A stretch of 64,000 nucleotides of DNA. It comes from Dehalococcoidia bacterium (GTDB taxonomy: Bacteria; Chloroflexota; Dehalococcoidia; Bin125). The stretch spans positions 2,744,376-2,808,375 of the forward strand of contig OZ247431.1 in NCBI GenBank assembly GCA_965232875.1, given 5' to 3'. Every line of letters starts with the position of its first letter. Position 1 is the first letter of the stretch. The notes beneath the pieces were generated by a model. The model had not been told where the DNA came from. It ran no database searches and worked only from the letters and a program-made list of their open reading frames with translations. The position numbers were made by a program, and so were the translations under genes. Positions 3,824 to 51,371 of this stretch are shown here, piece by piece.

Positions 3824-4816
3824 GTGCCTCCTGTTCTGAGCATTGACGATGTGAGCATTGAGTATCGGACTCGCGAAGAGCCGGTTCGTGCTGTTCGCGG
3901 TGCCTCGTTGACCCTGGAGCGCGGAGAGATTGTCGCGCTGGTCGGCGAGAGCGGGTCCGGCAAGACCACGCTAGGCCTGGCTATCCTCCGAATCCTGCCG
4001 CGTAACGCCGAGCAGACCACGGGCACGATCCGTTACGAGCATCGTGACCTCGGCGAACTGGACCGCAACGAGTTGCAGCGCATCCGCGGCGACCAGATTT
4101 CGATGATCTTCCAGGACCCGATCGCCGGACTGAACCCGATCATCACGGTCGGCCAGCAGGTCGAGGAAGTGATCACATCGCACCGAGACGTGAGCAAGCA
4201 ACAGGCACGGGAACGCGCCCTCGAGGCGCTCAATGCGATGCAGTTGCCCGACCCGGTCAGAATCGCCAAGTCCTATCCCGGAGAGCTCTCCGGCGGCATG
4301 TGTCAGCGCGTGATGATCGCGATTGCGACCGCGCTTGACCCTCAGCTCTTGATCGCCGACGAGCCGACCGCATCGCTCGACGTGACCGTGCAAGCGCAGA
4401 TTCTCTATGAGCTCGAGCGTCTGCGCGACGAACGCGGCACGGCGATTCTGCTGATTACGCACGACATGGGCGTTGTCGCACAAATTGCCGAACGTGTCGC
4501 CATCCTCTATGCAGGCAAGATGATGGAAGTCGACGACGTCATTCCGCTCTATCGGCAACCTCGTCACCCATACACCTGGGCGCTGCTCGACACGTTGCCG
4601 CGCCTCGACCGCCGCCGGCGCTCGCGTCTGCGGCAGATTCCCGGTGGGCTGCCCGACTTGACCAGTGAAGAGATCGGCGAGCACTGCGCGTATCTCTCGC
4701 GCTGTCCCAAGGCATTGACCCAGTGCCGAACCGAGGCAGAGCCGAAGCTCTCTGAGGTGGTCGGCGGACGCATCGGTCAACGCGTCGCGTGTTACAACCC
4801 GGTACTCGAGATTTAG
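3824..4816 (+). CDS. ABC transporter ATP-binding protein, oligopeptide/dipeptide (OppD/DppD) type, orphan
   Basis: Walker A GESGSGKTT, signature LSGGMCQRV, Walker B LLIADEPT. Cys-containing Opp/Dpp-type C-terminal extension. No permease or substrate-binding protein gene is adjacent. Confidence 0.85.
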   Translation: MPPVLSIDDVSIEYRTREEPVRAVRGASLTLERGEIVALVGESGSGKTTLGLAILRILPRNAEQTTGTIRYEHRDLGELDRNELQRIRGDQISMIFQDPIAGLNPIITVGQQVEEVITSHRDVSKQQARERALEALNAMQLPDPVRIAKSYPGELSGGMCQRVMIAIATALDPQLLIADEPTASLDVTVQAQILYELERLRDERGTAILLITHDMGVVAQIAERVAILYAGKMMEVDDVIPLYRQPRHPYTWALLDTLPRLDRRRRSRLRQIPGGLPDLTSEEIGEHCAYLSRCPKALTQCRTEAEPKLSEVVGGRIGQRVACYNPVLEI

Positions 4817-39103: not shown

Positions 39104-40492
39104 TTAGGCCGTTGCCAGTTGCAGTTTCGACTTCAGGTACTCCATCCCGCGATCACCCTTGATGCTGTTGCAATGACCGCAGAGGAGCTGGAGGTTCTCG
39201 ATGTGGTCGGTGCCGCCCTTTGATTGGGCGATGATGTGGTCGACTGTCAGGTGCTGGGGCTGGAAGTGCGTGCCGCAGCCGGCGCAGTCGCCGCCCTGCT
39301 GACCGTATAGCTGCTGCTTGTTGGCGGCCGAGTTGTAGGTAGGCAGCGGCCCCAAGTCGGTGCGCTGGGGGATGTCCTTGCGGTGCACGATGTTGCGCCA
39401 CAAGCCCTGGTCGGCCTCGACACGCTGGACGATTAGCTCGGCTGCCTTGGCCGACAGGTCGATGCCGACCCAGTCGCGCTGCAGGCGGTCGGCGGCGACC
39501 AGCGTCGTCGCGCAGCCGCAGAACGGGTCAAGCACCATATCACCCTCGTTCGATGATGCCTTGATGATCCGTTCAAGCAGTGCGAGCGGCTTCTGTGTCG
39601 GATAGCCCATCCGCTCCTTGGCCTGTGCGCTTACCGGGTTGATATCGGTAATCACGTCGCCAGCCGCTCGTCCTTGTTGTTCATCAAGGTAGCGCTTCAG
39701 TCTTGGCCGTCGGTCCGTAGATGCCGGATACCAGATGCGCCCTTCGTCGTGGAGGCGCTGCATCGTTTCCCGCTCATAGCGCCAGCCCTTCTCCGGGGGC
39801 GGGAAGCCGCGCCAGGTGTAGGTCATGTTTGGTCTTGGGTTGGGGCTGGTCATATTGTCCAGCATGTAACGCCTGCCAGACTCATCGCTGTGGCGATAGA
39901 ACCGATTCACGTACTCCTCGTCGTGAGGTTCCCACGCTCCGTTCCAGGTCGCCTCCGAACCGCGAACGTAGTACAGCAGCGTGTCGTGGATTCGGCCATA
40001 TCGTCTGGCGTCAGATCGACTGCTCGTCCGTTTCCAAGAGATCTCATTCTTGAAGTTCCGACGTCCGAACACAGCGTCCATGAGCAACTTGAGGTAGTGG
40101 CTCATCGTTGGGTCGCAATGCAGGTAGATCGAGCCGGTCGGCTTGAGCAGGCGGGGCATCTCCAACAGCCGCGCCGCCATGTAGGCCAAGTAGCTTTTGT
40201 CCGAGTCTGTTAACGCTGCCAACAGCACGCGATGCACGGCAGGGTGCTTCTGCTCGATCAGGTTGATCCACTCGGCGTCGACGTCGGAGAGCGACCAGGT
40301 GTCCTTGAACGCGGCGCCGGCGGCGGCCGAGCCGATCGGCGCGGCGTAGTTGGCGTTCGAGTTGAACGGCGGGTCGAGATAGATCAGGTCGACGGTCTCG
40401 GAGTTCATGCCTCGCATGATTTCGAGGCAGTCGCCCGTCCAGATCGTGCCGGTGGCGAAGTTCTGCGAACTGCTGTGGGGGTTGCTGGTCAC
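39104..40492 (-). CDS. DNA methyltransferase (N6_N4_Mtase) fused to C-terminal HNH endonuclease; copy 2 with a different, longer central segment
   Basis: The N-terminal about 150 aa and C-terminal about 160 aa are over 90% identical to copy 1 at protein and DNA level. The central segment of about 140 aa is unrelated. The start was set at GTG about 40492 (MTSNPHSSSQNFATGTIW...); the ORF-track ORF extends to 40729 through a non-coding R2 repeat. Confidence 0.8.
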   Translation of the reverse strand: MTSNPHSSSQNFATGTIWTGDCLEIMRGMNSETVDLIYLDPPFNSNANYAAPIGSAAAGAAFKDTWSLSDVDAEWINLIEQKHPAVHRVLLAALTDSDKSYLAYMAARLLEMPRLLKPTGSIYLHCDPTMSHYLKLLMDAVFGRRNFKNEISWKRTSSRSDARRYGRIHDTLLYYVRGSEATWNGAWEPHDEEYVNRFYRHSDESGRRYMLDNMTSPNPRPNMTYTWRGFPPPEKGWRYERETMQRLHDEGRIWYPASTDRRPRLKRYLDEQQGRAAGDVITDINPVSAQAKERMGYPTQKPLALLERIIKASSNEGDMVLDPFCGCATTLVAADRLQRDWVGIDLSAKAAELIVQRVEADQGLWRNIVHRKDIPQRTDLGPLPTYNSAANKQQLYGQQGGDCAGCGTHFQPQHLTVDHIIAQSKGGTDHIENLQLLCGHCNSIKGDRGMEYLKSKLQLATA

Positions 40493-40526
40493 TTGTCCGG
40501 TTCCTGTTAGTAGTCGTCGTCTCGTC

Positions 40527-40559
40527 GAGATACCCGCGGCAAGCGCGGGTATGACGGAG
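40527..40559. repeat. partial R2 element (second hairpin) just upstream of MTase-HNH copy 2
   Basis: GAGATACCCGCGGCAAGCGCGGGTATGACGGAG read directly. Confidence 0.7.
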
Positions 40560-40613
40560 CGTGGGAGGAAAACGACGAGAAGACAGACCTTCCTGCCGAA
40601 CCTCGCTTTGAGG

Positions 40614-41363
40614 CTAGCCAGCAGCATCCGGAGCGGCGTCAGCCACGGACTGATGCGGTGGATCGGCGATGCGGGGCGGGGCGACCATCTTCTGCGCGTC
40701 CAGCAGCTTCTTGATGACCTCGAAGTCATCTTCGGTCAACGGCTTGACCGAAGTAAGGGTGAACGAATTCCCGTCGTACAGCGCACCCGAGATTGGTGGG
40801 GCAATAGTCGTGTCCCTACCAATACTGTTTGGCTCCTGTTGGGGTGCCACCGTCTCTGCTTTCTCTTCGGGGCTCGGAGCGGAGCTTCTGTGAGCCATTC
40901 TTGACGCCATGAAGCGCTCCGTCTCAAGATATACACGAGCGCACTTGGGCGCAGAGCTCGCGGTGAAATTCTGGCGCACCAGCCAAGCCTCCAGGCTCTT
41001 AGGTTGGGGCGTCTTGGAACCAGCGAATTGCTTGCGAATCCTCTGGAACAACGGAGGCGAGTCCGCAGCGCGCACCAAAGCTTCCCATTGTTCCTCTCCC
41101 TCCGCGAGGAGTATGTCCTTGGCAAGGTCGCTCACCCGATACGATCCTTGGCTGGGTGTATCGATCAGTGCATACTGCCTCAAGGTGGAGATCCACGCTA
41201 GAGCTGCCCCACCTCGGGGCGAGTCGTAGCCTGCCGCAGCCGCCAGCGCTGGCGCGTCGATCTCGATAGAACTGTGAGACTGGAACACTTCGTTGATCTT
41301 CGCGATCGAAGCCTCGAGGCTATGACTCGGGTGCTTTGGGCTGCGCGGTCTCTTGCTTGGCAT
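40614..41363 (-). CDS. hypothetical protein immediately upstream of (same strand as) MTase-HNH copy 2
   Basis: 249 aa, Pro/Ala-rich low-complexity stretches, no recognised domain. May or may not be real. Confidence 0.35.
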   Translation of the reverse strand: MPSKRPRSPKHPSHSLEASIAKINEVFQSHSSIEIDAPALAAAAGYDSPRGGAALAWISTLRQYALIDTPSQGSYRVSDLAKDILLAEGEEQWEALVRAADSPPLFQRIRKQFAGSKTPQPKSLEAWLVRQNFTASSAPKCARVYLETERFMASRMAHRSSAPSPEEKAETVAPQQEPNSIGRDTTIAPPISGALYDGNSFTLTSVKPLTEDDFEVIKKLLDAQKMVAPPRIADPPHQSVADAAPDAAG

Positions 41364-41717
41364 GTTGCTCTCCTTGTGCTTATGCCGTCCTGGATATTGT
41401 GCCTACAAGTTAGCCACAAGTTCAGGATCTTGTCAAGAGCACACGGGCGCAAATCAGAAAATCAGTCAGAAAGCAGGCTAGGTCGGCACAATCCACTACT
41501 CGTCACTATCCGCCGCGATGGGGGTCGGTCGTGGATCTCCAACGTTGCATTGGTGGGCCCTCGAAGACCGTGTTGCGAACTTTTTCTTGGGACGCGACTC
41601 TCTGACGGCCCTCGCCTGAGGACCGTTGCCTCACCGGCCGGGTAGGTACTCCCTGAAGCGAGCGTACACACGTAGTCGCCGATTGCGATGTGCGTCGGAG
41701 TGGCGTACATTGCCTGC

Positions 41718-41996
41718 ATGAAAACTGAGACCAAGGTGGAACGTTGGACAATCCGAGTCTCGCCGTCCGACGACATGATTGTCCGCAGAGTCGTGGCGGA
41801 GAGCGGAATGTCGCTCAGTGAGTACGTGGTTCGTCACACGGTGTCAGCCGCGACCGCAGACCTTGCGGACCGGCGCGTCTTCGCGCTGTCGGCAGAGTCC
41901 TGGTCAGAGCTTCAAAACCTCCTCGATCAGCCGGTGTCGCCCAAACCCCGGCTCCGCACGCTGCTTGCACAGCCCTCCATCTTGGAGTCCGAGTGA
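41718..41996 (+). CDS. tacA: DUF1778 (TacA-family, RHH) type II antitoxin
   Basis: ERWTIRVSPSDDMIVRRVVAESGMSLSEYVV...ADRRVFALSAESWSELQNLLDQPVSPKPRLRTLL matches the DUF1778 family pattern (RxxxFxLxxxxWxxFxxxLdxP....LrxLL). 4-bp overlap with the downstream GNAT stub. Confidence 0.7.
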   Translation: MKTETKVERWTIRVSPSDDMIVRRVVAESGMSLSEYVVRHTVSAATADLADRRVFALSAESWSELQNLLDQPVSPKPRLRTLLAQPSILESE

Positions 41997-42262
41997 GCGG
42001 CTACCGCGGGCCTGTACTCCTCACGCCAAACCATCTGCTGGATCGTTTCGACTGCGACGACGACGCGCCGGTGCTTACGATCTCGGGCGGTAGCGCGATT
42101 ACGGCCAGAAAGGCGGTTCGCTCCCGTTGTGCGGGTCGGCGCTCCGATGGTGGGGCGACGGTTCCTCAGTACAGATCGCCCGAAAGAAGCCGACTTTCCC
42201 TCCGCGTCGCTGCTACCTTGGGTGTCCTTGAACGCGATATCGGGTCCTTGGGTCTTGCTTGA
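41993..42262 (+). pseudogene. truncated GNAT-family (TacT-like) toxin gene; only about 30 N-terminal residues remain recognisable
   Basis: VLLTPNHLLDRFDCDDDAPVL resembles a TacT N-terminus (...H..s.FDCG...L). The remainder has no GNAT acetyl-CoA motif, and the ORF collides with the convergent CD-NTase gene. Confidence 0.4.
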
Positions 42263-43856
42263 ATCGCTTGATCTCTCCGAGATGGCAACGTTTGTACTTT
42301 CGTCCGCTGCCGCAAGCGCAGGGATCATTCCTCCTCAAACACTGCATGGCGATATCGGCAAGGGAAGACAGATACTGCTGGAAACCGAGCTCGCCATGGC
42401 CGTACTCGTCCCAGAGGTGCTGCCTGGCAGCCTGAATGCCGTATCGGTCGGTGTACCCCAATCGGTAGAAGAATGGGGTCACCATTTCATCCATAAACTC
42501 CCTGAGCGTCGTGCGACGGTCCGCCAACAGCTGAAGGCCCAGACAGCAAGAGCCGTCCCGATAGACGTGGAGATCGAAGCTGTCAATGCGTTCCCTTACA
42601 GCGATTCGCTCATGATCTCCGCCAACCTCGTAGACCTTCGGCCAACCATTCTGGTCAAAGGAGTCCAGGTCGATCCGGATCGAGAATGAGTCGCAGAGGA
42701 ACGTTTCCATTCTCTCGGTTGCATCGTCGCAGCCAATCAACAGCTTCCCTGCTTCCCCGTCGTACGCGGCACGCAACTCCAACTCACCTTCGATGAGCGC
42801 GGCCTCCGAGTCGCAACTGAGGCCGGGGAATTCCGAAGTCAACCACTCGAGCTCAACAGGGCTCAAGCTGAGCCGCCCTCGGGATGGAATGGCGCCCACA
42901 GCGGCATACGGCCTGCTCGGCGTGACTGTTCTCGGTGCCGTCTTCGCCACGGAGCGGTTTGCTGAGACAGCCACGCTGCCGAAGCCGTCCCCGAAGAGCG
43001 CCCGCCACTTTCTGACGCTCGACTGCTCGTCTTGGTCCTCGTATGCCTCCCTTACTCTCGTGGCATAGCTGGAGATCATGTCCCTGAAGCGGTCGTACTT
43101 GTCCTGATCCCAGTGCCGCGTGAAGGTCTCGCTTGGCAGAACGGGATTACGGATATCGGGCATGAATGGATGAGACTGGAGATATCTGTCGAGCCGTGTG
43201 ATCACGGTCAGCAGCGCATCGGGAATGGTCTTGAACTCTGTGTCGTCTTCCCAGTCGTAGACCGTGCTGCCAATCAGCATGGTGAGCAGGATCGACGGTG
43301 CCGTGAAGGTCTTCTTGTGGTCTCTCAGGTACTTCAGCAATCGCGTGACCAGCTTGAGATTGCCGTTGGTGATCCGGTTCTTCTGGTTGAACCAGTCGCG
43401 GTATCCGTTACCGTCCGTTGGCTCGAACCCGTTGGTCTTGCGGTTGCAGATGAAGTGGCTGCCGTTGAGGGTGATGCAGGGAACTAAGTCGATATTGAAA
43501 TCGTCCGCATAGTTGACGGTGATGCACCTAGTCTTCCTCTGAGCTTTGTCGGTATAGTTGCCGTTGTCCTTGAGACACTCGTACACGTCGTCGATGTAGT
43601 CCTTCGCTGACTTGGTTTCATCGAACTCCAAGTAAACGAGGCGGTCCACATCGAACTCGTCGCTGTCTTTGACCGGTCTGATCGTTGTGCGGAGGGCGTA
43701 TGAGCCTTGCCTCTCGGTCGTCTCGAACCCGACCAGATGCTGGGCCAGGTAATCGCTGACGGCCTTGTCGCTCCTCTTCAACCGCTCGTACCGAGTAGGG
43801 TTGAGATTCACGTGTCCGCTCATGAATTGACGGAAGTCGTCGACTCGCCTTGTCAT
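42213..43856 (-). CDS. CBASS cyclic oligonucleotide synthase (SMODS/CD-NTase-type nucleotidyltransferase) with about 250-aa unrecognised Cys-rich C-terminal extension ending in a SEC-C-like motif
   Basis: NTase signature GSYALRTTIRPVKDSDEFDVDRLV (GS...SDxDxxV) plus the downstream acidic residue in NYADDFNIDLVPC. 547 aa against a typical 300-400. C-terminal CACGSGRKYKRCH. 4-bp overlap with the patatin gene upstream. Confidence 0.7.
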   Translation of the reverse strand: MTRRVDDFRQFMSGHVNLNPTRYERLKRSDKAVSDYLAQHLVGFETTERQGSYALRTTIRPVKDSDEFDVDRLVYLEFDETKSAKDYIDDVYECLKDNGNYTDKAQRKTRCITVNYADDFNIDLVPCITLNGSHFICNRKTNGFEPTDGNGYRDWFNQKNRITNGNLKLVTRLLKYLRDHKKTFTAPSILLTMLIGSTVYDWEDDTEFKTIPDALLTVITRLDRYLQSHPFMPDIRNPVLPSETFTRHWDQDKYDRFRDMISSYATRVREAYEDQDEQSSVRKWRALFGDGFGSVAVSANRSVAKTAPRTVTPSRPYAAVGAIPSRGRLSLSPVELEWLTSEFPGLSCDSEAALIEGELELRAAYDGEAGKLLIGCDDATERMETFLCDSFSIRIDLDSFDQNGWPKVYEVGGDHERIAVRERIDSFDLHVYRDGSCCLGLQLLADRRTTLREFMDEMVTPFFYRLGYTDRYGIQAARQHLWDEYGHGELGFQQYLSSLADIAMQCLRRNDPCACGSGRKYKRCHLGEIKRFKQDPRTRYRVQGHPR

Positions 43857-44821
43857 TCGTTGTCCTCCAAACTGGTCAATATGGTCTCGCCGTACAGGCT
43901 GAAATCTCGGTTGGCTAGCGCTTTGAGGGTCTGCAGGTGCGTCGTGTCATCCAGCCTCCAGGACTGAATCTCTGGGTCGAGCCGTATGTGGCGATCGCCG
44001 AGCAGCAGCTTTGCCATGTTGGTTGACGCCTGAGACTGCAGGCCCAGCACGTAGCCGACCAGTTTTTCGCCGCCCCAGCCGGTCAGCAAGCCCCAGGATC
44101 TGCCCTCAGTGAAGAAACTGGCAGTGCGCCCGGTTCCGAGAGAAAGCACGCGTATCTGCCCGAGCGGTCGGCCGAATCTGGACAGCGCCTCCGTGACCGC
44201 AATGATCGTGGGGTTATTGGCCCAGAGTCCGCCATCTGCGAGGAGGTATTCGCCGACCTGCCTGGGGTCGAAGTATGCTGGCGCGGCGCAGGACGCCAAG
44301 ATTGCGTCTCTCAGTCGAACATCACCGTCCCGCAGGTAGGGACCGCCCAAGTCCTTCAGGTACCGAGACTTGAAGACATGCGCATTGCCGGTCGAAATGT
44401 CTGAGCTGGTGATCATCAGAGGGGTTGTGATTTCCCCCATGGTGACTGACGGCAGGTATTCGCCGATTGCATTGTGAAGGGGTTCAGTCGAATAGCGGCT
44501 GCGCAGAAAGGGAAAGCAGCTGAATCTCTTCGTCTTGAAAATGCGGTCGGCCTGACTCTCGAAGAGCTCGACGACAGTCCGCATCGGGATCTCTGTCGCT
44601 GCTGCGCCCGCCAATATCGATCCGGTGCTGGTTCCCGCGATAAGGTCGAAGCACTCACTCACGGGCGCCATGAGCGCGTCTTCCAGTTTCGCGAGTACGT
44701 GCGCGGCATACACCCCTCTGATGCCGCCCCCGTCTAACGCAAGAATGCTGAACGAGTCGTTGCGTCGCATCACGAGCCACTCGTTCTCCGATTCGCTGCC
44801 GGTAGCCGGCCGAGCATCCAC
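43853..44821 (-). CDS. capV: patatin-like phospholipase (CBASS effector CapV-like)
   Basis: LALDGGGIRG (oxyanion), GTSTGS (GxSxG nucleophile), DGG (catalytic Asp). Alternative starts GTG 44821 or ATG 44770. Confidence 0.85.
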   Translation of the reverse strand: MDARPATGSESENEWLVMRRNDSFSILALDGGGIRGVYAAHVLAKLEDALMAPVSECFDLIAGTSTGSILAGAAATEIPMRTVVELFESQADRIFKTKRFSCFPFLRSRYSTEPLHNAIGEYLPSVTMGEITTPLMITSSDISTGNAHVFKSRYLKDLGGPYLRDGDVRLRDAILASCAAPAYFDPRQVGEYLLADGGLWANNPTIIAVTEALSRFGRPLGQIRVLSLGTGRTASFFTEGRSWGLLTGWGGEKLVGYVLGLQSQASTNMAKLLLGDRHIRLDPEIQSWRLDDTTHLQTLKALANRDFSLYGETILTSLEDNE

Positions 44822-44908
44822 GAAGGATTTTCCTCTCGTCTACTCTGGGCAGATCGCGGCAAGAATCCGGTGATTCCGACATAATCCAGAAGATGGGCGG
44901 GCTCGATC

Positions 44909-44947
44909 GGTTTACACATGTTGAGAGTGTACCATGATTTGTAAACC
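44909..44947. promoter_or_regulatory. 8-bp inverted repeat GGTTTACA-N23-TGTAAACC in the capV / regulator divergent promoter, just upstream of the regulator RBS
   Basis: Read directly. A GGAGGAA RBS and the ATG at 44964 follow. Confidence 0.45.
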
Positions 44948-44963
44948 GAATGGAGGAACTCCA

Positions 44964-46016
44964 ATGTTCAGTGAACGTCTCAAGCTCGCCCGAAGACGCA
45001 GTGGCCTGTCGTTACGCGCACTGTCCTCGGTCGCAGGGGGCATCGTCTCGGCCCAAGCAATCGGCAAGTATGAGCGGGGAGAGATGATGCCGAGTTCGAC
45101 CGTGACGATCGCCCTCGCGGAAGCCCTCGACGTACCCGTGAGCTATCTCTTGAGTCCGACGAAAGTCTCTTTGAACTCGGTCGAGTTCAGAAGGCCGACC
45201 TCAATCAAGGTTCGGGAGAGCGCGTCAGTGGAGGCAGAGGTCCTCGATCAGGTGGATCGTTACTTGCAGGTCGAGGAGATCCTCGGGATTGACACCTCCC
45301 GGCACGACAACCCAGTTGGTGCTCCATTTCCGATCGCCTCCGTGGAAGAGGTGGAAGTGGCCGCCCAGCGTCTTCGCGACGCATGGAACCTTGGTGGCGG
45401 CCCGATCCCGGATATGCCTGAGCTGCTGGAGGAACGCGGCATTAAGGTGTTCAGGCTTGACCTGCCTGGATCGGTAGATGGCCTCAGTTGCCGAGTGCGT
45501 CAAGCGGACGGAGACGACATTCCTGCAGTGGTCTACTCGACGGGAACCTCCCTCGAACGAGAACGATTCACAATCGCGCACGAACTGGGTCACATGGTCA
45601 TGGATATCCCGTCCTCATTGGACAAGGAGCGAGCCTGTCAGCGCTTTGCCGGTGCGTTCATAGCGCCCGCAGAGGAGTTGGTTCGCGAGCTCGGACGCCA
45701 CCGGCACAACTTCGGATTCGCCGAGCTCATCGAGATCAAGCACATGTTCGGCATCAGCGCCGCCGCGCTCGTCATGCGGATGCGGGACCTGCGGATCATC
45801 ACGGACACCACCGTTAGCGCCATTTTCGACGGCATCGGAAGCAGTTGGAGAACAGATGAACCGGCGCCACTAAAGGAAGCCGAGAGCCATTCACGGTTCC
45901 GGCGCCTGTGTCTCAGAGCTCTTGCTGAGAATGAGATTTCTCAATCCAAGGCTTCGGAGCTGTTGAGGCTCAAAGTCAGCGAGATCGAGAAGATCATGGC
46001 TGGCTCGAACATCTAG
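44964..46016 (+). CDS. fused XRE-family HTH / ImmA-IrrE zinc metallopeptidase (CapH-CapP-like CBASS regulator)
   Basis: N-terminal HTH (RLKLARRRSGLSLRALSSVAGGIVSAQAIGKYERGE), HEXXH in FTIAHELGHMVMD. Divergent to the capV-NTase operon. The ORF track starts at 44934; the ATG with an RBS at 44964 is preferred. Confidence 0.8.
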   Translation: MFSERLKLARRRSGLSLRALSSVAGGIVSAQAIGKYERGEMMPSSTVTIALAEALDVPVSYLLSPTKVSLNSVEFRRPTSIKVRESASVEAEVLDQVDRYLQVEEILGIDTSRHDNPVGAPFPIASVEEVEVAAQRLRDAWNLGGGPIPDMPELLEERGIKVFRLDLPGSVDGLSCRVRQADGDDIPAVVYSTGTSLERERFTIAHELGHMVMDIPSSLDKERACQRFAGAFIAPAEELVRELGRHRHNFGFAELIEIKHMFGISAAALVMRMRDLRIITDTTVSAIFDGIGSSWRTDEPAPLKEAESHSRFRRLCLRALAENEISQSKASELLRLKVSEIEKIMAGSNI

Positions 46017-46024
46017 GCGAACCG

Positions 46025-46525
46025 ATGAAAGTCCTGGTCAGCGACAGTTCCATCTTGATTGAGTTCTCGAAGCGGGACATCTTGCACAAGATGTTCGAGC
46101 TGGAGTTTCAGTTTGCCGTGCCTGATCTGCTGTTCCACGAGGAACTGATTGACCTCGGTTCCTACAGCCGACAAGACCTGCTGGGTTTCGGACTGAGGGT
46201 GGAAGCGCTGGGTGCGGACGGCGTGGCGATGGCCGTTGGCTACCAAGCAGAACGAGCGGCACTCAGCCTGGTAGACGCATTTGCGCTCGCGCTTGCCGGA
46301 ACTCATGGATGGCGCATCCTGACCGAAGACAGGACCATGCGTCGCTTCGCAGAGACTAAGAGCATTGCGCACTTGGACGCGCTCTGGGTCTTCGACAGGA
46401 TGCTTGACACGAGTGTGCTATCTGGTCCTCAAGCCTTGGTTGTGTTGGAAGCGATGCTCAACGATCCAAGATGTCCTGTGCCCAACCCTGAACTAGCCAG
46501 CCGCATTGAGACTCTTCGAGATTGA
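46025..46525 (+). CDS. PIN-like domain protein (DUF4411-like partner of ImmA/IrrE regulators)
   Basis: N-terminal MKVLVSDSSILIEF (PIN-like acidic residue in a beta-strand). 166 aa. 9 bp downstream of the regulator stop. The DUF4411 assignment is from memory of the family pattern, not an alignment. Confidence 0.45.
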   Translation: MKVLVSDSSILIEFSKRDILHKMFELEFQFAVPDLLFHEELIDLGSYSRQDLLGFGLRVEALGADGVAMAVGYQAERAALSLVDAFALALAGTHGWRILTEDRTMRRFAETKSIAHLDALWVFDRMLDTSVLSGPQALVVLEAMLNDPRCPVPNPELASRIETLRD

Positions 46526-46945
46526 GTTGCTAGAGCGCGATCGAAGCGCGCAAGAGGATGTTGCGAAATAATCTCCGAGCCGTTGCCCCTAACGCGGAAG
46601 ATGACCGAGGAGCCATTTGGTTGGAATCAGGCTGCTTTACAGGGCATCGCTCGCTCGCGGGTTGCTCGCCACATCGCTTGCGCCGCTCAACACACCTCCC
46701 CACCAAACTGGACAAAATCAAGAACCTTCGAGATTCGATTCGCGCTGGAACGTTGATTCGCTGCCGACGTCAGGTCCCCAGATTCGTCCGGATCAGGCTC
46801 CGGTGCTCCTGGCACACGATTACGCAGCGTCGCAATACCGCCATTTGGGCGACCCAAGAGCGCAAGGCCCTGAGTGCTTCTTCGAAGTCTCGATTTAGCC
46901 TTTCAAGAGGTTCTCGTCCGAAGAACATCGAAGAAGAGGCGCCGG

Positions 46946-49240
46946 ATGAAAATAGAGCGGATTGACAAACTCCACGGGTGCGGAGTGTTTCGAGACTTCA
47001 CATGGTCGGACGTTCCAGACCTGCAAGAGTTCGGCCGATTCAACCTCATCTACGGATGGAATGGTTCTGGCAAGACCACCCTCAGCCGCATCCTCCGGAG
47101 CCTGGAACTGCGGAGAAGGCCTCAAGGCGAGGACGTCGCGCTGCGCGTCACTGGGCGCAGGATCGAAGGCTCGGAATTCGGCGAAGTCCAGCCGGAGACA
47201 ATTGCCTTGAAGGTCTTCAATCAAGACTTCGTCAAAGACAACGTCTTTCGTCCTGACGACGATGGTATGACCCCCATTGTGGTGCTGGGCAAAAGGAGCA
47301 TTGAGGCACAGCAGAAGATTGACCAGCTCAAAGCAGAGCTCGAGACATTGAATCAGGAACTGGCCGCCTCCGAAAGGAAAGAACGCGACTTCCTGCGTGA
47401 CCTGGACAATCACTCCAAGACAAATGCGCGCACATTGAAGGATCTGCTCGGCAACCAACCGAAGAGCGCTTACCGGAACTACAACCGGGGCCATTACGAG
47501 ACGCGCGCCGACACAATGATCGCCGCTGGTGCTCCTGAGATTCTTCGACTCAGCGACGAGGAACGCATCGCGCTCGTTCAACGCCAGGCTGAGACACAGA
47601 GGGACACAGTCTCCCTGCCTGACTTCGACCCAGTCGATCTTGCTGAATCGGAAACAGAGGCCTCCGTCCTTCTGGCGACGACCGTAACGTCGACAGCACT
47701 AGATTCACTCGCTCGCGATCCGGCCCTCGCTGAATGGATACGCGACGGTCTTCACATCCACGCCGATCGATCTGCCGGCGAATGCTTGTATTGCAGCCGC
47801 CCCATGCCAAATGAGCGCTTAGAGACTCTGCGAGACTACTTCGATGGCGCTCACGGAAAACTCATGAGGGACATCGAGTCCGCAATCTCGAAGTGTCAGG
47901 CCGAAGCCGAAAGGATGAGGGCGCTTCGCTCTGCACTGCCAATTGCCGACCAGCTCTATGCCGATCTGTCAGAGCCTTTTGAGGAAGCAAAGGAGCGACT
48001 ATATGCGGAAACGGATCAGGCTGACTCCTTCTTGCACCGGCTGACCGATGATCTGGGCAGCAAGAAGGAGCGGGCGTTCGAGTCGCTCAGTTTGGGATAT
48101 CAGGCACCCTCGAGTGGTGTCGACAGTTTTGCGTCGGTTGCAGGGATCATCGAAAAACACAACGAGGTGTGCGCCGAGTTCCAAGCCAGCGTCGAGCGGG
48201 CACGGGAGTCAATTGAATCGGATTTCATTGCCGAACGTCTTGACGCCTACAAGAGCCTCAAGTTTGGACTCAAGACGACTCAAGTCACCCAAGAACGGGT
48301 CAATCGACGAGTGAGAGAGATCCGAGAGGAAATCGCTCGGCTCGAATCCGACATCTTGGACCATCGCCCTCCCGCAGACGACTTGAATGCTGATTTACGC
48401 AACTACCTGGGTCCTGGAGCGATGCAACTGGCTGTCAATGAACACGGGTACACGCTCATGCGCGACGGCTGGCCGGCGGAAAACCCGAGCGAAGGGGAGA
48501 TGACCGCCATTGCGCTCTTGTATTTTCTCAGATCGTTGAATAGCCATGGATTTGACCTCAAGCAGGGGGGCGTCGTTCTCGATGACCCAGTGTCGAGTCT
48601 CGACGAAAACGCGCTCTTCACCGCGGCTTCTTACATACGTCGGAGGACTCAGGGCGCCGGGCAACTCATCATTTTGACGCACAACTTCGCCTTCTTTCGT
48701 GAGATGCGGAACTGGCTCAGGAATGTCAAAGAACCACGCAAGAAGGGCCCAGCGAAGCGGCCGGCGCGGTTCTACATGTTGAGGTGCAGCGTCATTGACG
48801 GAAAGAGGGCTGCTGTGTTGCGGCCGTTAGACCGGTTGCTAGCGCAATACGAATCCGACTATCACTATCTCTTCAGCCGCATCTATCGCGCGGCGAACAC
48901 TCCCAGCAATATTCTAGAAGACAACTACGCTCTACCGAACATGGCGCGTAGGATGCTCGAGGCGTTTCTGGCATTCAAGCACCCGCAGTCGGACAGCCTG
49001 TGGAACAAAGTCAACAGGTTGAGTTTCGACGAAGTCAAGAAAACGCAGGTGTTGCGCTTTCTGAATGTCTATTCCCACGACGAGACGATTGGAACCCCGC
49101 AGCATGATCCCACCCTGTTGGCGGAGTCAAACACAGTATTGGGGAATCTTCTGGAGCTTATCCAAGCTGTAGACCGCGAACACTACGACGCGATGATCAC
49201 ATTAATCGAGCAAGCAGGCGCAGGAGATGTCGACAGTTGA
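46946..49240 (+). CDS. AAA_13-family ATPase (PrrC/RloC-like, Rad50-like coiled-coil insert with CxxC hook)
   Basis: MKIERIDKLHGCGVFRDFTW...FNLIYGWNGSGKTTLSRIL (AAA_13 N-terminal hallmark plus Walker A), CLYCSRPM (CxxC), Walker B-like VVLDDPVSSLDE, C-terminal LPNMARRMLEAFLAFKHPQ. The start was moved to the ATG with RBS at 46946. Confidence 0.7.
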   Translation: MKIERIDKLHGCGVFRDFTWSDVPDLQEFGRFNLIYGWNGSGKTTLSRILRSLELRRRPQGEDVALRVTGRRIEGSEFGEVQPETIALKVFNQDFVKDNVFRPDDDGMTPIVVLGKRSIEAQQKIDQLKAELETLNQELAASERKERDFLRDLDNHSKTNARTLKDLLGNQPKSAYRNYNRGHYETRADTMIAAGAPEILRLSDEERIALVQRQAETQRDTVSLPDFDPVDLAESETEASVLLATTVTSTALDSLARDPALAEWIRDGLHIHADRSAGECLYCSRPMPNERLETLRDYFDGAHGKLMRDIESAISKCQAEAERMRALRSALPIADQLYADLSEPFEEAKERLYAETDQADSFLHRLTDDLGSKKERAFESLSLGYQAPSSGVDSFASVAGIIEKHNEVCAEFQASVERARESIESDFIAERLDAYKSLKFGLKTTQVTQERVNRRVREIREEIARLESDILDHRPPADDLNADLRNYLGPGAMQLAVNEHGYTLMRDGWPAENPSEGEMTAIALLYFLRSLNSHGFDLKQGGVVLDDPVSSLDENALFTAASYIRRRTQGAGQLIILTHNFAFFREMRNWLRNVKEPRKKGPAKRPARFYMLRCSVIDGKRAAVLRPLDRLLAQYESDYHYLFSRIYRAANTPSNILEDNYALPNMARRMLEAFLAFKHPQSDSLWNKVNRLSFDEVKKTQVLRFLNVYSHDETIGTPQHDPTLLAESNTVLGNLLELIQAVDREHYDAMITLIEQAGAGDVDS

Positions 49241-49274: not shown

Positions 49275-51125
49275 TCAATGCCAGTCGTGGGCGTCGGGCA
49301 GGGGGATATCGGCGCCGACGGCTTCGATGCGTTCGGCGGCGAGGTTGGTAGTACCGTCCCAGCGGTTGATCCGGCCGCTGATGATGATCAGCGGATTTGA
49401 GAGGGCTCGGCGGCACTGGGCAAAGACCTGGGGGCGGATGATCGCCTGGACATCGCCGGTCTCGTCTTCGATGGTGACGAAGACGATGCCGTCCGCGCCT
49501 TGGGGGTGCTGTCGAGCGATCACCCAGCCGGCGACGTGGATGCGCTCGCCGTCCCCGGCTTGGTAAGTATCGGACGTCGTGAGCACATCGGGGTCCAGCG
49601 TCGGACGGATGAACTCCATCACGTGGCCACGGGGGTAGATGTCCAGCGCCTGGTACTCGCCGACCATCTTGTCGTAGTCGCTGAGGTCGTCGAATCTGGG
49701 CGGCGGCTCCGCTCCGATCACGGGGAAGGCGCGTTGACCGTTGCGCGCGGACGGAATCGAGAGACCGGCTTCCCAGAGCGCCTCGCGTCGGTTGGGTGTG
49801 AGCGCTTCGAACGCGCCCGCCTCGATCAGCGAGCGCACGGCCCGCGGCTTGAGTCCGGTGCGGCGCACGAGCTCGCCCGCGTCGGCGTAGGGGCCGTGGC
49901 GCTCGCGCTCTGTCACGATCAGCTTGGCCGACTCTGCGCCGATGTCCTTGATCATGCCCAGTCCGAGCCGCACTGCGCCGTCCTCAGGCTGCGCCCGCAC
50001 GTCGCTGCGGTTGACGCAGGGATTGAGGAAGGGGACGCCGAAGCGGCGGGCGTCCTCTTTCAGCGTCTCGACGGGATAGAAGCCCATCGGCTGTTGGTTG
50101 ACCAGCGAGACGAAGAACTCCAGCGGGTAGCGGCGCTTGAGCCAGGCGGCCTGATAGGCGGTGATTGCAAACGCGTGCGAGTGCGACTCGGGGAACATGT
50201 AGTGACCGTTGATCTTGGCGAAGATGCGCTCTGCCGCGTCCGTCGGGACGCCGTTCGTTTGCGCCCCTTCGAGGAATCGCTGGCGGTGCATCGCGAGCGG
50301 ATGCTCATTGTTCTGCCGCGCGAAGGCGCGGCGCACCTCGTCGGCTTCGGCCGCGGTCATCCCGGCCACATCCATGATCAGCTGCACGACCTGCTCCTGC
50401 CAGACGATGATCCCGTAGCCCCGCTCCAACGCGCGCCGCTCCAGCGGATGGTCGTAGTCCCACTCGGCCCCGTGTCGGTAGCGCTCGACGAACTGCGAGA
50501 CGGCGCTGCCCTGCGTGCCGACGCCGGGTCGGATCAGCGCCACCTGGTAGGCGAGGTCGCGCAGGTTGCGCGAGCGGAGCCGCTGGCCCATCTTCAGTTG
50601 GGCCGGCGACTGGAGCAGAAAGACGCCTTTCGACTGGCCCGCGTTGATCAGGTCGTAGACGCCGTCGTCCTCGGGGTCGATCCGGCTGAGATCGGGCCGC
50701 TGTCCCGTGCGCCGCTCGATCAGCTCCAGCGCCTCCTCAAGCTGGTCCAGGACCGGTAGGGACAAGAGGTCGATCTTGGCGAAGTTGGCGTCGGCGACGC
50801 TGTCCTTGTTCCAGTCCATGATCTAGCGGCCGTCCATCGCGGCGGCGCGGATGGGAACCAGTTCGGGGATCGGCGTGTCCGAGAGGATCATCCCGCCGAC
50901 GTGCTGGCCGAGTCCGCGCGGCGCGTTCATCAAGTCGGGCGCCAGCGCGATCAGGTCGCGCCAACCGTGCGCCCCGACCTTGTCGCGGAAGTCGGGCAGG
51001 AAGCGCTCGAGCGTCAGGTTCCACTTGAGCGGATCGATGTGGCTGATGCCGATCAGGTAGCCGACCAGCAGCGCCACCGAGGACCCACGCTCAGCCGAGC
51101 AGCCAGGGGCAGATGATCGACGACC
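49275..51125 (-). pseudogene. dnaE2: decayed dnaE2-type (error-prone) DNA polymerase III alpha gene: C-terminal about 515 aa intact, upstream part frameshifted, internally deleted and 5'-truncated
   Basis: ORF 49275-50819 carries DnaE finger/thumb/OB regions (KIDLLSL, GYGIIVWQEQV, ...). The adjacent ORF 50823-51350, in another frame, carries LLVGYLIGISHIDPLKWNL..ERFLPDF and then, after only about 30 aa, HVGGMILSD..PIPELVPI. These segments are about 200 aa apart in intact DnaE. No PHP domain is upstream. Confidence 0.7.
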
Positions 51126-51371
51126 ACCGCGTGGCGGCGCGAACGATCCACGACCAGGCCCGGGCAATCCGCCAGCTCGGGCCGTCGCGCCAGCTCCAGA
51201 CGCGCCCGGAAATGATTCACCAGGACGCAGCCGATCGCGCGGTCGCCGGTCATCTCCCTCTCCTGTTCTCGAGTCGAACGCGAAGTACATAGTACAGATG
51301 TTCCCATCGCGGTGCCGCACTCGCCCGGGAATGAGGTGGTAGGCTCCCATGACACCGCGAAAGGCTTCACG

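Follow-up and report, generated by a model that had tools for sequence, protein, structure and literature searches.

A stretch of 64,000 nucleotides from a Dehalococcoidia bacterium (contig OZ247431.1, positions 2,744,376 to 2,808,375; called the window below) holds a two-gene operon in which a patatin-like phospholipase gene is followed by the gene for a nucleotidyltransferase of the cGAS/DncV-like type (CD-NTase, or cyclase). The C-terminal half of this cyclase is a ubiquitin-E2-like regulator domain already known from cyclic-oligonucleotide-based antiphage signalling systems (CBASS), here fused to the cyclase. The operon is very probably a short type II (E2-only) CBASS whose E2 is joined to the cyclase C-terminus and carries an extra SEC-C zinc knuckle. 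The best overall explanation, and a likely one, is an E2-only CBASS with a CapV effector and a cyclase-E2 fusion, in which E2-type processing is proposed by analogy.

The original prediction had described the cyclase's C-terminal region as an unrecognised Cys-rich domain ending in a SEC-C-like knuckle. The knuckle stands: Pfam PF02810 matches it at 6.4e-8 (32.8 bits, gathering cut-off 20.4), and SecA C-terminal peptides in the PDB match the motif at 3e-5. The unrecognised domain does not. PADLOC's "E2" models, which describe the CBASS E2 family, cover residues 337-534 at 2.3e-26, and three additional PADLOC E2 and E1-E2 models also match the fusion protein. AlphaFold2 (AF2) was used to model residues 325-547 from 37 homologues, with a mean predicted local distance difference test score (pLDDT) of 89, and the model runs from an N-terminal helix through a beta-meander and a long loop to further helices. 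Comparison of the E2-region model with the PDB in Foldseek gave E2/UEV proteins for all of the top 50 matches, with weak E-values (best 9e-3). In the model, C438 sits on the loop that connects the last strand to helix alpha-2, where published work places the E2 active site. As modelled, the region therefore appears to be what an E2-CBASS carries, a UBC-fold domain with a candidate active-site Cys on the loop that follows the last beta-strand, and the PADLOC matches, the fold and the position of C438 together identify the supposed Cys-rich domain as an E2 with a SEC-C motif. The profile and structure comparison thus found a CBASS domain that was already known, and a false lead is removed. Among 96 members of the E2+SEC-C family, with identities as low as 22%, no columns are invariant other than those of H430, C438, H487, C513, C515 and C524; H430 lies 8 residues before C438 and H487 lies 49 after it.

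The N-terminal half is a standard CD-NTase, as had been claimed. Pfam SMODS matches residues 5-160 at 2.4e-28, a DncV-like nucleotidyltransferase family also matches, and the PADLOC Cyclase model matches at 7e-109. The GS...DxD...D signature of CBASS cyclases is present as QGS (residues 50-52), D69xD71 and D123, and G51-S52, D69, D71 and D123 are invariant in the alignment columns of cyclase homologues. By fold, Foldseek places the core near CdnD (7d4j, E 4e-16, template modelling (TM) score 0.74) and CdnB (TM 0.78), the nearest solved proteins being CdnD, CdnB and CdnC. By sequence, the nearest solved proteins are BcCdnD (1e-14), SmCdnG (1e-8) and BfCdnB (6e-8).

The upstream gene encodes the CapV-like patatin that the original prediction had named. 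Pfam Patatin matches it at 2.4e-30, the NCBIfam model for the CBASS cGAMP-activated phospholipase gives 237 bits (cut-off 200), the PADLOC phospholipase effector model matches at 5.5e-81, and the GGGIRG, GTSTG and DGG motifs are all found. The cyclase operon thus encodes an effector, as a CBASS does; activation of the patatin by a nucleotide is putative. The patatin stop and the cyclase-E2 start overlap by 4 bp (ATGA). Neither an E1 (ThiF) nor a JAB domain was found in the two genes of the operon, and the neighbours scanned were TacA, HTH-M78, PIN and AAA_13 genes. A check of the open reading frames (ORFs) recovered all four genes of the locus and the 4-bp overlap as first described, with two starts slightly corrected. 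The mechanical ORF of the patatin gene (43853-44821, minus strand) extends to a GTG at 44821, and its likeliest start is the ATG at 44770, as in homologues; the mechanical ORF of the divergent helix-turn-helix (HTH)-M78 gene begins at 44934 and was corrected to the ATG at 44964, which gives a product identical to a database entry. The features are collected in Table 1.

Table 1. Features of the CBASS operon and the adjoining divergent genes, in positions of the window.
Feature	Position	Strand	Details
Cyclase-E2 fusion gene (SMODS/CD-NTase)	42213-43856	-	547 aa
CD-NTase (SMODS) catalytic core, aa 1-293	42978-43856	-	Pfam, PADLOC, Foldseek, invariant columns
Variable, partly disordered linker, aa 294-331	42864-42977	-	AF2 pLDDT; alignment of 79 fused homologues
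Cyclase tail motif VTPSRPYA, aa 311-318	42903-42926	-	A318 is the predicted cleavage/conjugation residue
E2 (UBC-fold) domain, aa 332-504	42345-42863	-	Candidate catalytic C438, codon 42543-42545
SEC-C zinc-knuckle motif RNDPCACGSGRKYKRCHL, aa 509-526	42279-42332	-	Pfam PF02810
Patatin gene (CapV-type phospholipase effector)	43853-44770	-	305 aa from ATG 44770
Inverted repeat TCGGTTTACACAT-N17-ATTTGTAAACCGA, 13-nt arms	44907-44949	.	Candidate operator in the 193-bp divergent region
HTH-M78 gene	44964-46016	+	350 aa; XRE HTH and M78/ImmA-IrrE metallopeptidase (HELGH) in one polypeptide
PIN-like (DUF3368) gene	46025-46525	+	166 aa; begins 8 bp past the HTH-M78 stop

The two halves of the fusion are joined by a linker that varies in length and sequence among 79 fused homologues and is partly disordered (AF2 pLDDT below 50 at residues 296-305). 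The exception within it is a short motif with the consensus V-x-P-x-[KR]-P-[YWF]-A, referred to here as the cyclase tail motif. V311 is conserved in 78 of the 79 homologues, P313 and an aromatic residue at position 317 in all 79, and A318 in 77, and residues 311-320 form an island of pLDDT 82 between disordered flanks. A KPYA-type motif is kept internally in 17 of 17 fused loci. Where the E2 has its own gene, 23 of 24 intact cyclases stop exactly one residue past KPY[A/S], typically as ...VTPRKPYAR, so that the equivalent of the conserved Ala is the penultimate residue of the cyclase. Loci that lack a SEC-C E2 have the motif in 0 of 36 cases; about 29 of their cyclases end in ...RFG, and the sister cyclases of loci L034-L079 end in ...NEARRFG or ...GFG. 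An ORF of about 515 aa lies directly 3' of the cyclase in four of the five such loci that were inspected, and the one in L035, the only one scanned against Pfam, has a ThiF domain and is Cap2-like. The tail sequence changes with the accessory type even among close cyclases, for example between L035 and L040-L059. This strict covariation, KPYA plus one residue with a SEC-C E2 and ...RFG without it, points to the tail as a specificity element.

The cyclase-E2 fusion is not rare. SMODS and SEC-C occur together in every one of more than 100 cluster representatives (530-590 aa, 41-100% identity). These derive from independent assemblies, some of them complete chromosomes, which rules out an assembly artefact as the origin of the fused ORF. 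Scanning genomes yielded 78 related loci, nearly all in metagenome-assembled genomes of Dehalococcoidia/Chloroflexota, with one in Rhodothermales. A profile of the E2 and SEC-C region found 889 clusters (50% identity) at E <= 1e-10, and the best 150 of these comprise about 13 fused proteins (476-607 aa) and otherwise stand-alone proteins of about 160-290 aa. A neighbour-joining tree of the cyclase cores, which is without bootstrap support, interleaves fused, split and SEC-C-E2-lacking loci and suggests repeated fusion, fission and accessory exchange among these relatives. Locus L001, which falls within an otherwise fused clade, has the same genes in split form, with a cyclase of 323 aa (69-73% identity) and an E2+SEC-C protein of 205 aa; it looks like a recent fission through a stop codon in the spacer.

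At L001 (6001-7602) the split cyclase ends in KPYANTTSLDS, seven residues past the motif rather than one, and the E2 gene begins 13 nt downstream. Another arrangement was seen in L057 (5910-8858), L067, L070 and L076, where proteins of about 1000 aa place a STAND-like AAA_16 ATPase, a winged helix and TPR repeats N-terminal to a SMODS cyclase that belongs to the same clade as the cyclase studied here. These could be sensor-fused CD-NTases. After the fused cyclase, L057 has HTH, M78 and patatin genes along with a second cyclase and an ORF of about 517 aa at the position of the Cap2-type gene of L035.

The E2-CBASS of Serratia marcescens (SmCdnG and SmE2; PDB 8HSB and 8YJY; Yan et al. 2024, Xiao et al. 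2026) offers the analogy for what the E2 domain might do, with the difference that its E2 is a separate protein and the window's is fused. The SmCdnG tail reads ...Y405-G406-E407, and SmE2, using C101 with H87, removes anything after G406, whether E407, MBP or GFP. A G406~C101 thioester then gives way to an isopeptide and to poly-cGAS chains, with no need for E1 or ATP. H87, a catalytic His near the Cys, and a second His, H152, are specific to E2-only CBASS. The tail pattern of the window cyclase and its split relatives parallels that of SmCdnG. H487, a possible counterpart of H152, lies 49 residues past C438 in the window E2, against 51 from C101 to H152 in SmE2.

In the proposed mechanism, the CD-NTase would make a cyclic nucleotide that activates the co-transcribed CapV patatin phospholipase, membrane lipids would be degraded and the infected cell would die (abortive infection). 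By analogy with SmCdnG-SmE2, the E2 domain would serve as a cysteine transpeptidase, with C438 assisted by H430, and would attack the retained tail motif at the peptide bond that follows A318, either in cis or between protomers. The linker would be severed and the cyclase C-terminus relinked as a thioester, and then as an isopeptide or in cyclase chains. This chemistry would run without E1 or ATP and would tune or activate nucleotide synthesis. That the E2 domain processes its own fusion at A318, by cutting and relinking the cyclase tail, is put forward tentatively and may well not hold. A little more speculative is the fuller picture of a self-processing, single-chain ubiquitin-like system that uses Ala rather than Gly and dispenses with docking domain, E1 and ATP, in which a branched cyclase~E2 adduct or chains might switch signalling on and the SEC-C knuckle might provide a localisation or sensing input that the characterised E2-CBASS lacks. 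If self-processing is true, these fusions would serve as naturally occurring single-chain models for E1-independent ubiquitin-like conjugation. A318, C438, H430 and H487 are the residues singled out for mutation.

Several findings weigh against carrying the SmE2 model over unchanged. Cyclases of E2-CBASS carry a conserved C-terminal Gly through which they are linked to the E2 Cys, and its equivalent here is A318, an Ala that lies inside the chain. The G406A variant of the Serratia cyclase (SmcGAS) is tolerated and still links, so an Ala tail is compatible with such chemistry in the window fusion. The ubiquitin-like docking domain (a helix and a three-stranded sheet), through which CdnG and CdnH cyclases recruit E2, is absent from the cyclase: after the helix at residues 277-288, AF2 predicts a disordered linker with just a 3-residue strand, and the cyclases of the split relatives are short (317-346 aa). 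A conserved acceptor Lys is missing from the position taken to match K159 of SmE2. The geometry between the domains is uncertain, with a predicted TM score of 0.56. Finally, the link between the two E2s is one of fold and PADLOC hidden Markov models, and no sequence profile run reached SmE2.

The main rival to self-processing holds that the fusion is a permanent tether that is never cut. The linker would then replace the covalent bond between cyclase and E2, the tail motif would just dock in the E2 groove, and the Cys/His site would act on other substrates or on lysines of other protomers. Published work has taken such fusions to suggest that the functional form is the covalently linked one, the absence of a conserved acceptor Lys fits an uncut protein, and because the cyclase has no CdnG-type docking domain, a tether could take the place of docking. 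We nevertheless consider a permanent tether somewhat unlikely. In an uncut chain, A318 could not offer the free carboxylate that thioester chemistry requires, H430, C438, H487 and the exact tail motif are equally conserved in fused and split forms, and SmE2 readily cleaves C-terminal extensions.

Two other readings fare much worse. The window E2 is far diverged from characterised E2s (12% identity to SmE2), which might suggest a degenerate, catalytically dead structural appendage; this is very improbable given a His-Cys-His triad that is invariant across 96 sequences down to 22% identity and a cognate tail motif that is also conserved. The layout first proposed, a minimal type I CBASS whose cyclase has a Cys-rich domain, novel and uncatalogued, with a sensor or regulatory role, draws on the lack of any Pfam or NCBIfam model matching residues 300-508 and on single-sequence and profile searches of the PDB with the C-terminal region that returned only SEC-C peptides (SecA, YchJ) and neither SmE2 nor any other E2, but it is refuted by the PADLOC E2 and Foldseek E2/UEV matches and is hardly tenable, since a type I system has only a cyclase and an effector and this cyclase has an E2 domain fused to it.

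If the operon is an E2-only CBASS, as we believe, it differs from the Serratia system in several further respects. The nearest solved relatives of its cyclase are BcCdnD, EcCdnD and BfCdnB, and judged by these it is not clade G-like; a ubiquitin-like docking domain is missing at its C-terminus, and its tail has Ala where Serratia has Gly. Its E2 carries extra helices and the SEC-C zinc knuckle that SmE2 does not have, and its effector is CapV rather than 2TM-SAVED. Compared with type II CBASS that use Cap2 (E2-E1) and Cap3 (JAB), such as E. cloacae CdnD-Cap2 and V. cholerae DncV, the window operon lacks both an E1 adenylation domain and a JAB, its tail motif is different, and its chemistry is presumed by analogy to be ATP-independent. 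CD-NTase-E2 fusion proteins were noted earlier by Burroughs et al. 2015, according to the part of a citing paper (PMC12948482) that refers to them. The literature searched contained no experimental work on any CD-NTase-E2 fusion and no link between the SEC-C motif and a CBASS E2; the retained KPYA tail, an Ala tail residue without docking domain and the SEC-C knuckle are likewise not described there. The analysis yields a testable prediction for a branch of E2-CBASS that has E2s with a SEC-C tail, fused or split, CapV effectors, an Ala-ended cyclase tail and no docking domain.

Divergent to the operon, across an intergenic region of 193 bp, lie the HTH-M78 gene and the PIN-like gene that the original prediction had paired with it, and both of these gene calls hold. 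The HTH-M78 protein matches HTH_3 (1e-12) and Peptidase_M78 (1e-10), has a HELGH motif and is similar to RmrA and to a CapH-CapP fusion. PADLOC assigns it over its full length to RmrA, the RosmerTA antitoxin (PDLC03949, 2.7e-53), with lower matches to capP (1.8e-12) and capH (7e-4). The second protein matches Pfam PIN at 2e-5, and its homologues carry PF11848 (DUF3368); no PADLOC model, RmrT included, matches it, and it is a putative toxin or nuclease partner. The inverted repeat in the intergenic region coincides in part with a promoter-like site, TTTACA-16-CATGAT. Each of 18 cassette-bearing loci has a single copy of the repeat's core, GTTTAC-N20-30-GTAAAC, and 0 of 66 loci without the cassette have it; the repeat is therefore the cassette's own candidate operator. 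A role for the palindrome as a CBASS-specific operator was rejected, as it travels with the HTH-M78 cassette.

The HTH-M78 and PIN genes are a portable cassette with its own palindromic candidate operator, and they are also found beside non-CBASS cargo, with PIN proteins 71-74% identical to that of the window. In L080, L081, L082 and L084 the cassette is always divergent to its cargo and about 200 bp from it. Around related cyclases, an M78 gene lies just upstream of the patatin gene in 62 of 79 loci, and the cassette therefore occupies the CapH/CapP slot. HTH and M78 are fused in 14 of these 62, 13 of which have a PIN gene alongside; the remaining M78 genes are separate, encode about 185-245 aa and have no PIN gene, and an HTH gene stood beside the separate M78 gene in all three such loci that were scanned against Pfam.

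Whether the cassette also controls CBASS expression in the manner of CapH/CapP, or is an independent RosmerTA-type toxin-antitoxin (TA) or defence cassette that merely lies beside the CBASS in a defence island, is evenly balanced. An independent cassette is favoured by an RmrA score far above that of capP, by the same cassette standing beside a TMP-kinase/ThyA/ThsB-TIR cluster, an Lhr helicase and a TA-rich island, by a palindrome that moves with the cassette rather than with the CBASS, and by the antitoxin-then-toxin order and 8-bp gap that are typical of TA pairs. RosmerTA is also known to couple an ImmA-protease antitoxin to varied toxins (PMC10440598), and the window resembles RmrT/RmrA in having an HTH and ImmA-type protease antitoxin-like protein followed by a small putative toxin. 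On the other side, most of the 62 upstream M78 loci have split HTH and M78 genes and no PIN, the constant divergent placement is that of CapH/CapP-like regulators, and the putative toxin, the PIN/DUF3368 partner, falls outside the PADLOC RmrT models. Lau et al. 2022 described CapH-CapP fusions in 15 CBASS systems, and beside DISARM they reported such a fusion next to a vapC-like gene, so fused forms and a vapC-like partner have been seen before. The window shares with their CapH/CapP an HTH repressor-type protein and an M78 metallopeptidase that are placed upstream of a defence operon and divergent to it; it differs in scoring higher for RmrA than for capP and capH, in its PIN/DUF3368 partner and in having non-CBASS cargo elsewhere, and its regulation of the CBASS is putative.

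The other settings of the cassette are varied. In L080 (1-5992) it is divergent to genes for TMP-kinase/HMUDK_hel, thymidylate synthase (ThyA), two ThsB-type TIR proteins and Nmad2, which looks like a nucleotide-modification or TIR defence cluster. In L081 it adjoins an Lhr-type helicase and in L082 a TA-rich island. L084 has a 281-aa patatin remnant (3900-4745) next to the cassette, no cyclase gene and transposase genes nearby, and looks like the remains of a CBASS locus in which the HTH-M78 and PIN genes were retained.

The G+C fraction dips to 0.57-0.60 at 40-50 kb of the window, against 0.61-0.68 across most of the remainder. Defence-type genes identified nearby with Pfam and PADLOC, namely a methyltransferase-HNH fusion, a TacA antitoxin and an AAA_13 protein, place the CBASS locus in a defence island. 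Directly 3' of the PIN gene is a gene for a 788-aa AAA_13 ATPase (46874-49240, plus strand; Pfam 1.6e-144) that PADLOC matches to the candidate defence protein PDC-S06 at 1e-227, and no counterpart of it flanks any related CBASS locus. On the other side, 39104-40729 (minus strand) encodes a 541-aa N6/N4 DNA methyltransferase with a C-terminal HNH endonuclease domain (PADLOC MTase_II, 1e-68), and no separate restriction gene was seen. Between it and the TacA gene lies a 249-aa ORF (40614-41363, minus strand) with zero matches in Pfam, PADLOC and NCBIfam. The TacA-type antitoxin (41688-41996, plus strand; Pfam 2e-15) is missing a recognisable TacT partner. It is followed by an 89-aa ORF (41993-42262, plus strand) that overlaps the 3' end of the cyclase gene and begins ...HLLDRFDCDDD, which we take to resemble the N-terminus of TacT; Pfam and NCBIfam gave no support to a truncated TacT. 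The ORF may be a toxin gene truncated on the arrival of the CBASS genes. Further along, a gene for DNA polymerase III alpha (DnaE-like) at 49275-51350 (minus strand) is apparently split into at least two ORFs, with a 175-aa fragment of the NTPase domain and a 514-aa ORF with finger, HhH and OB domains, possibly through a frameshift, pseudogenisation or an error of assembly.

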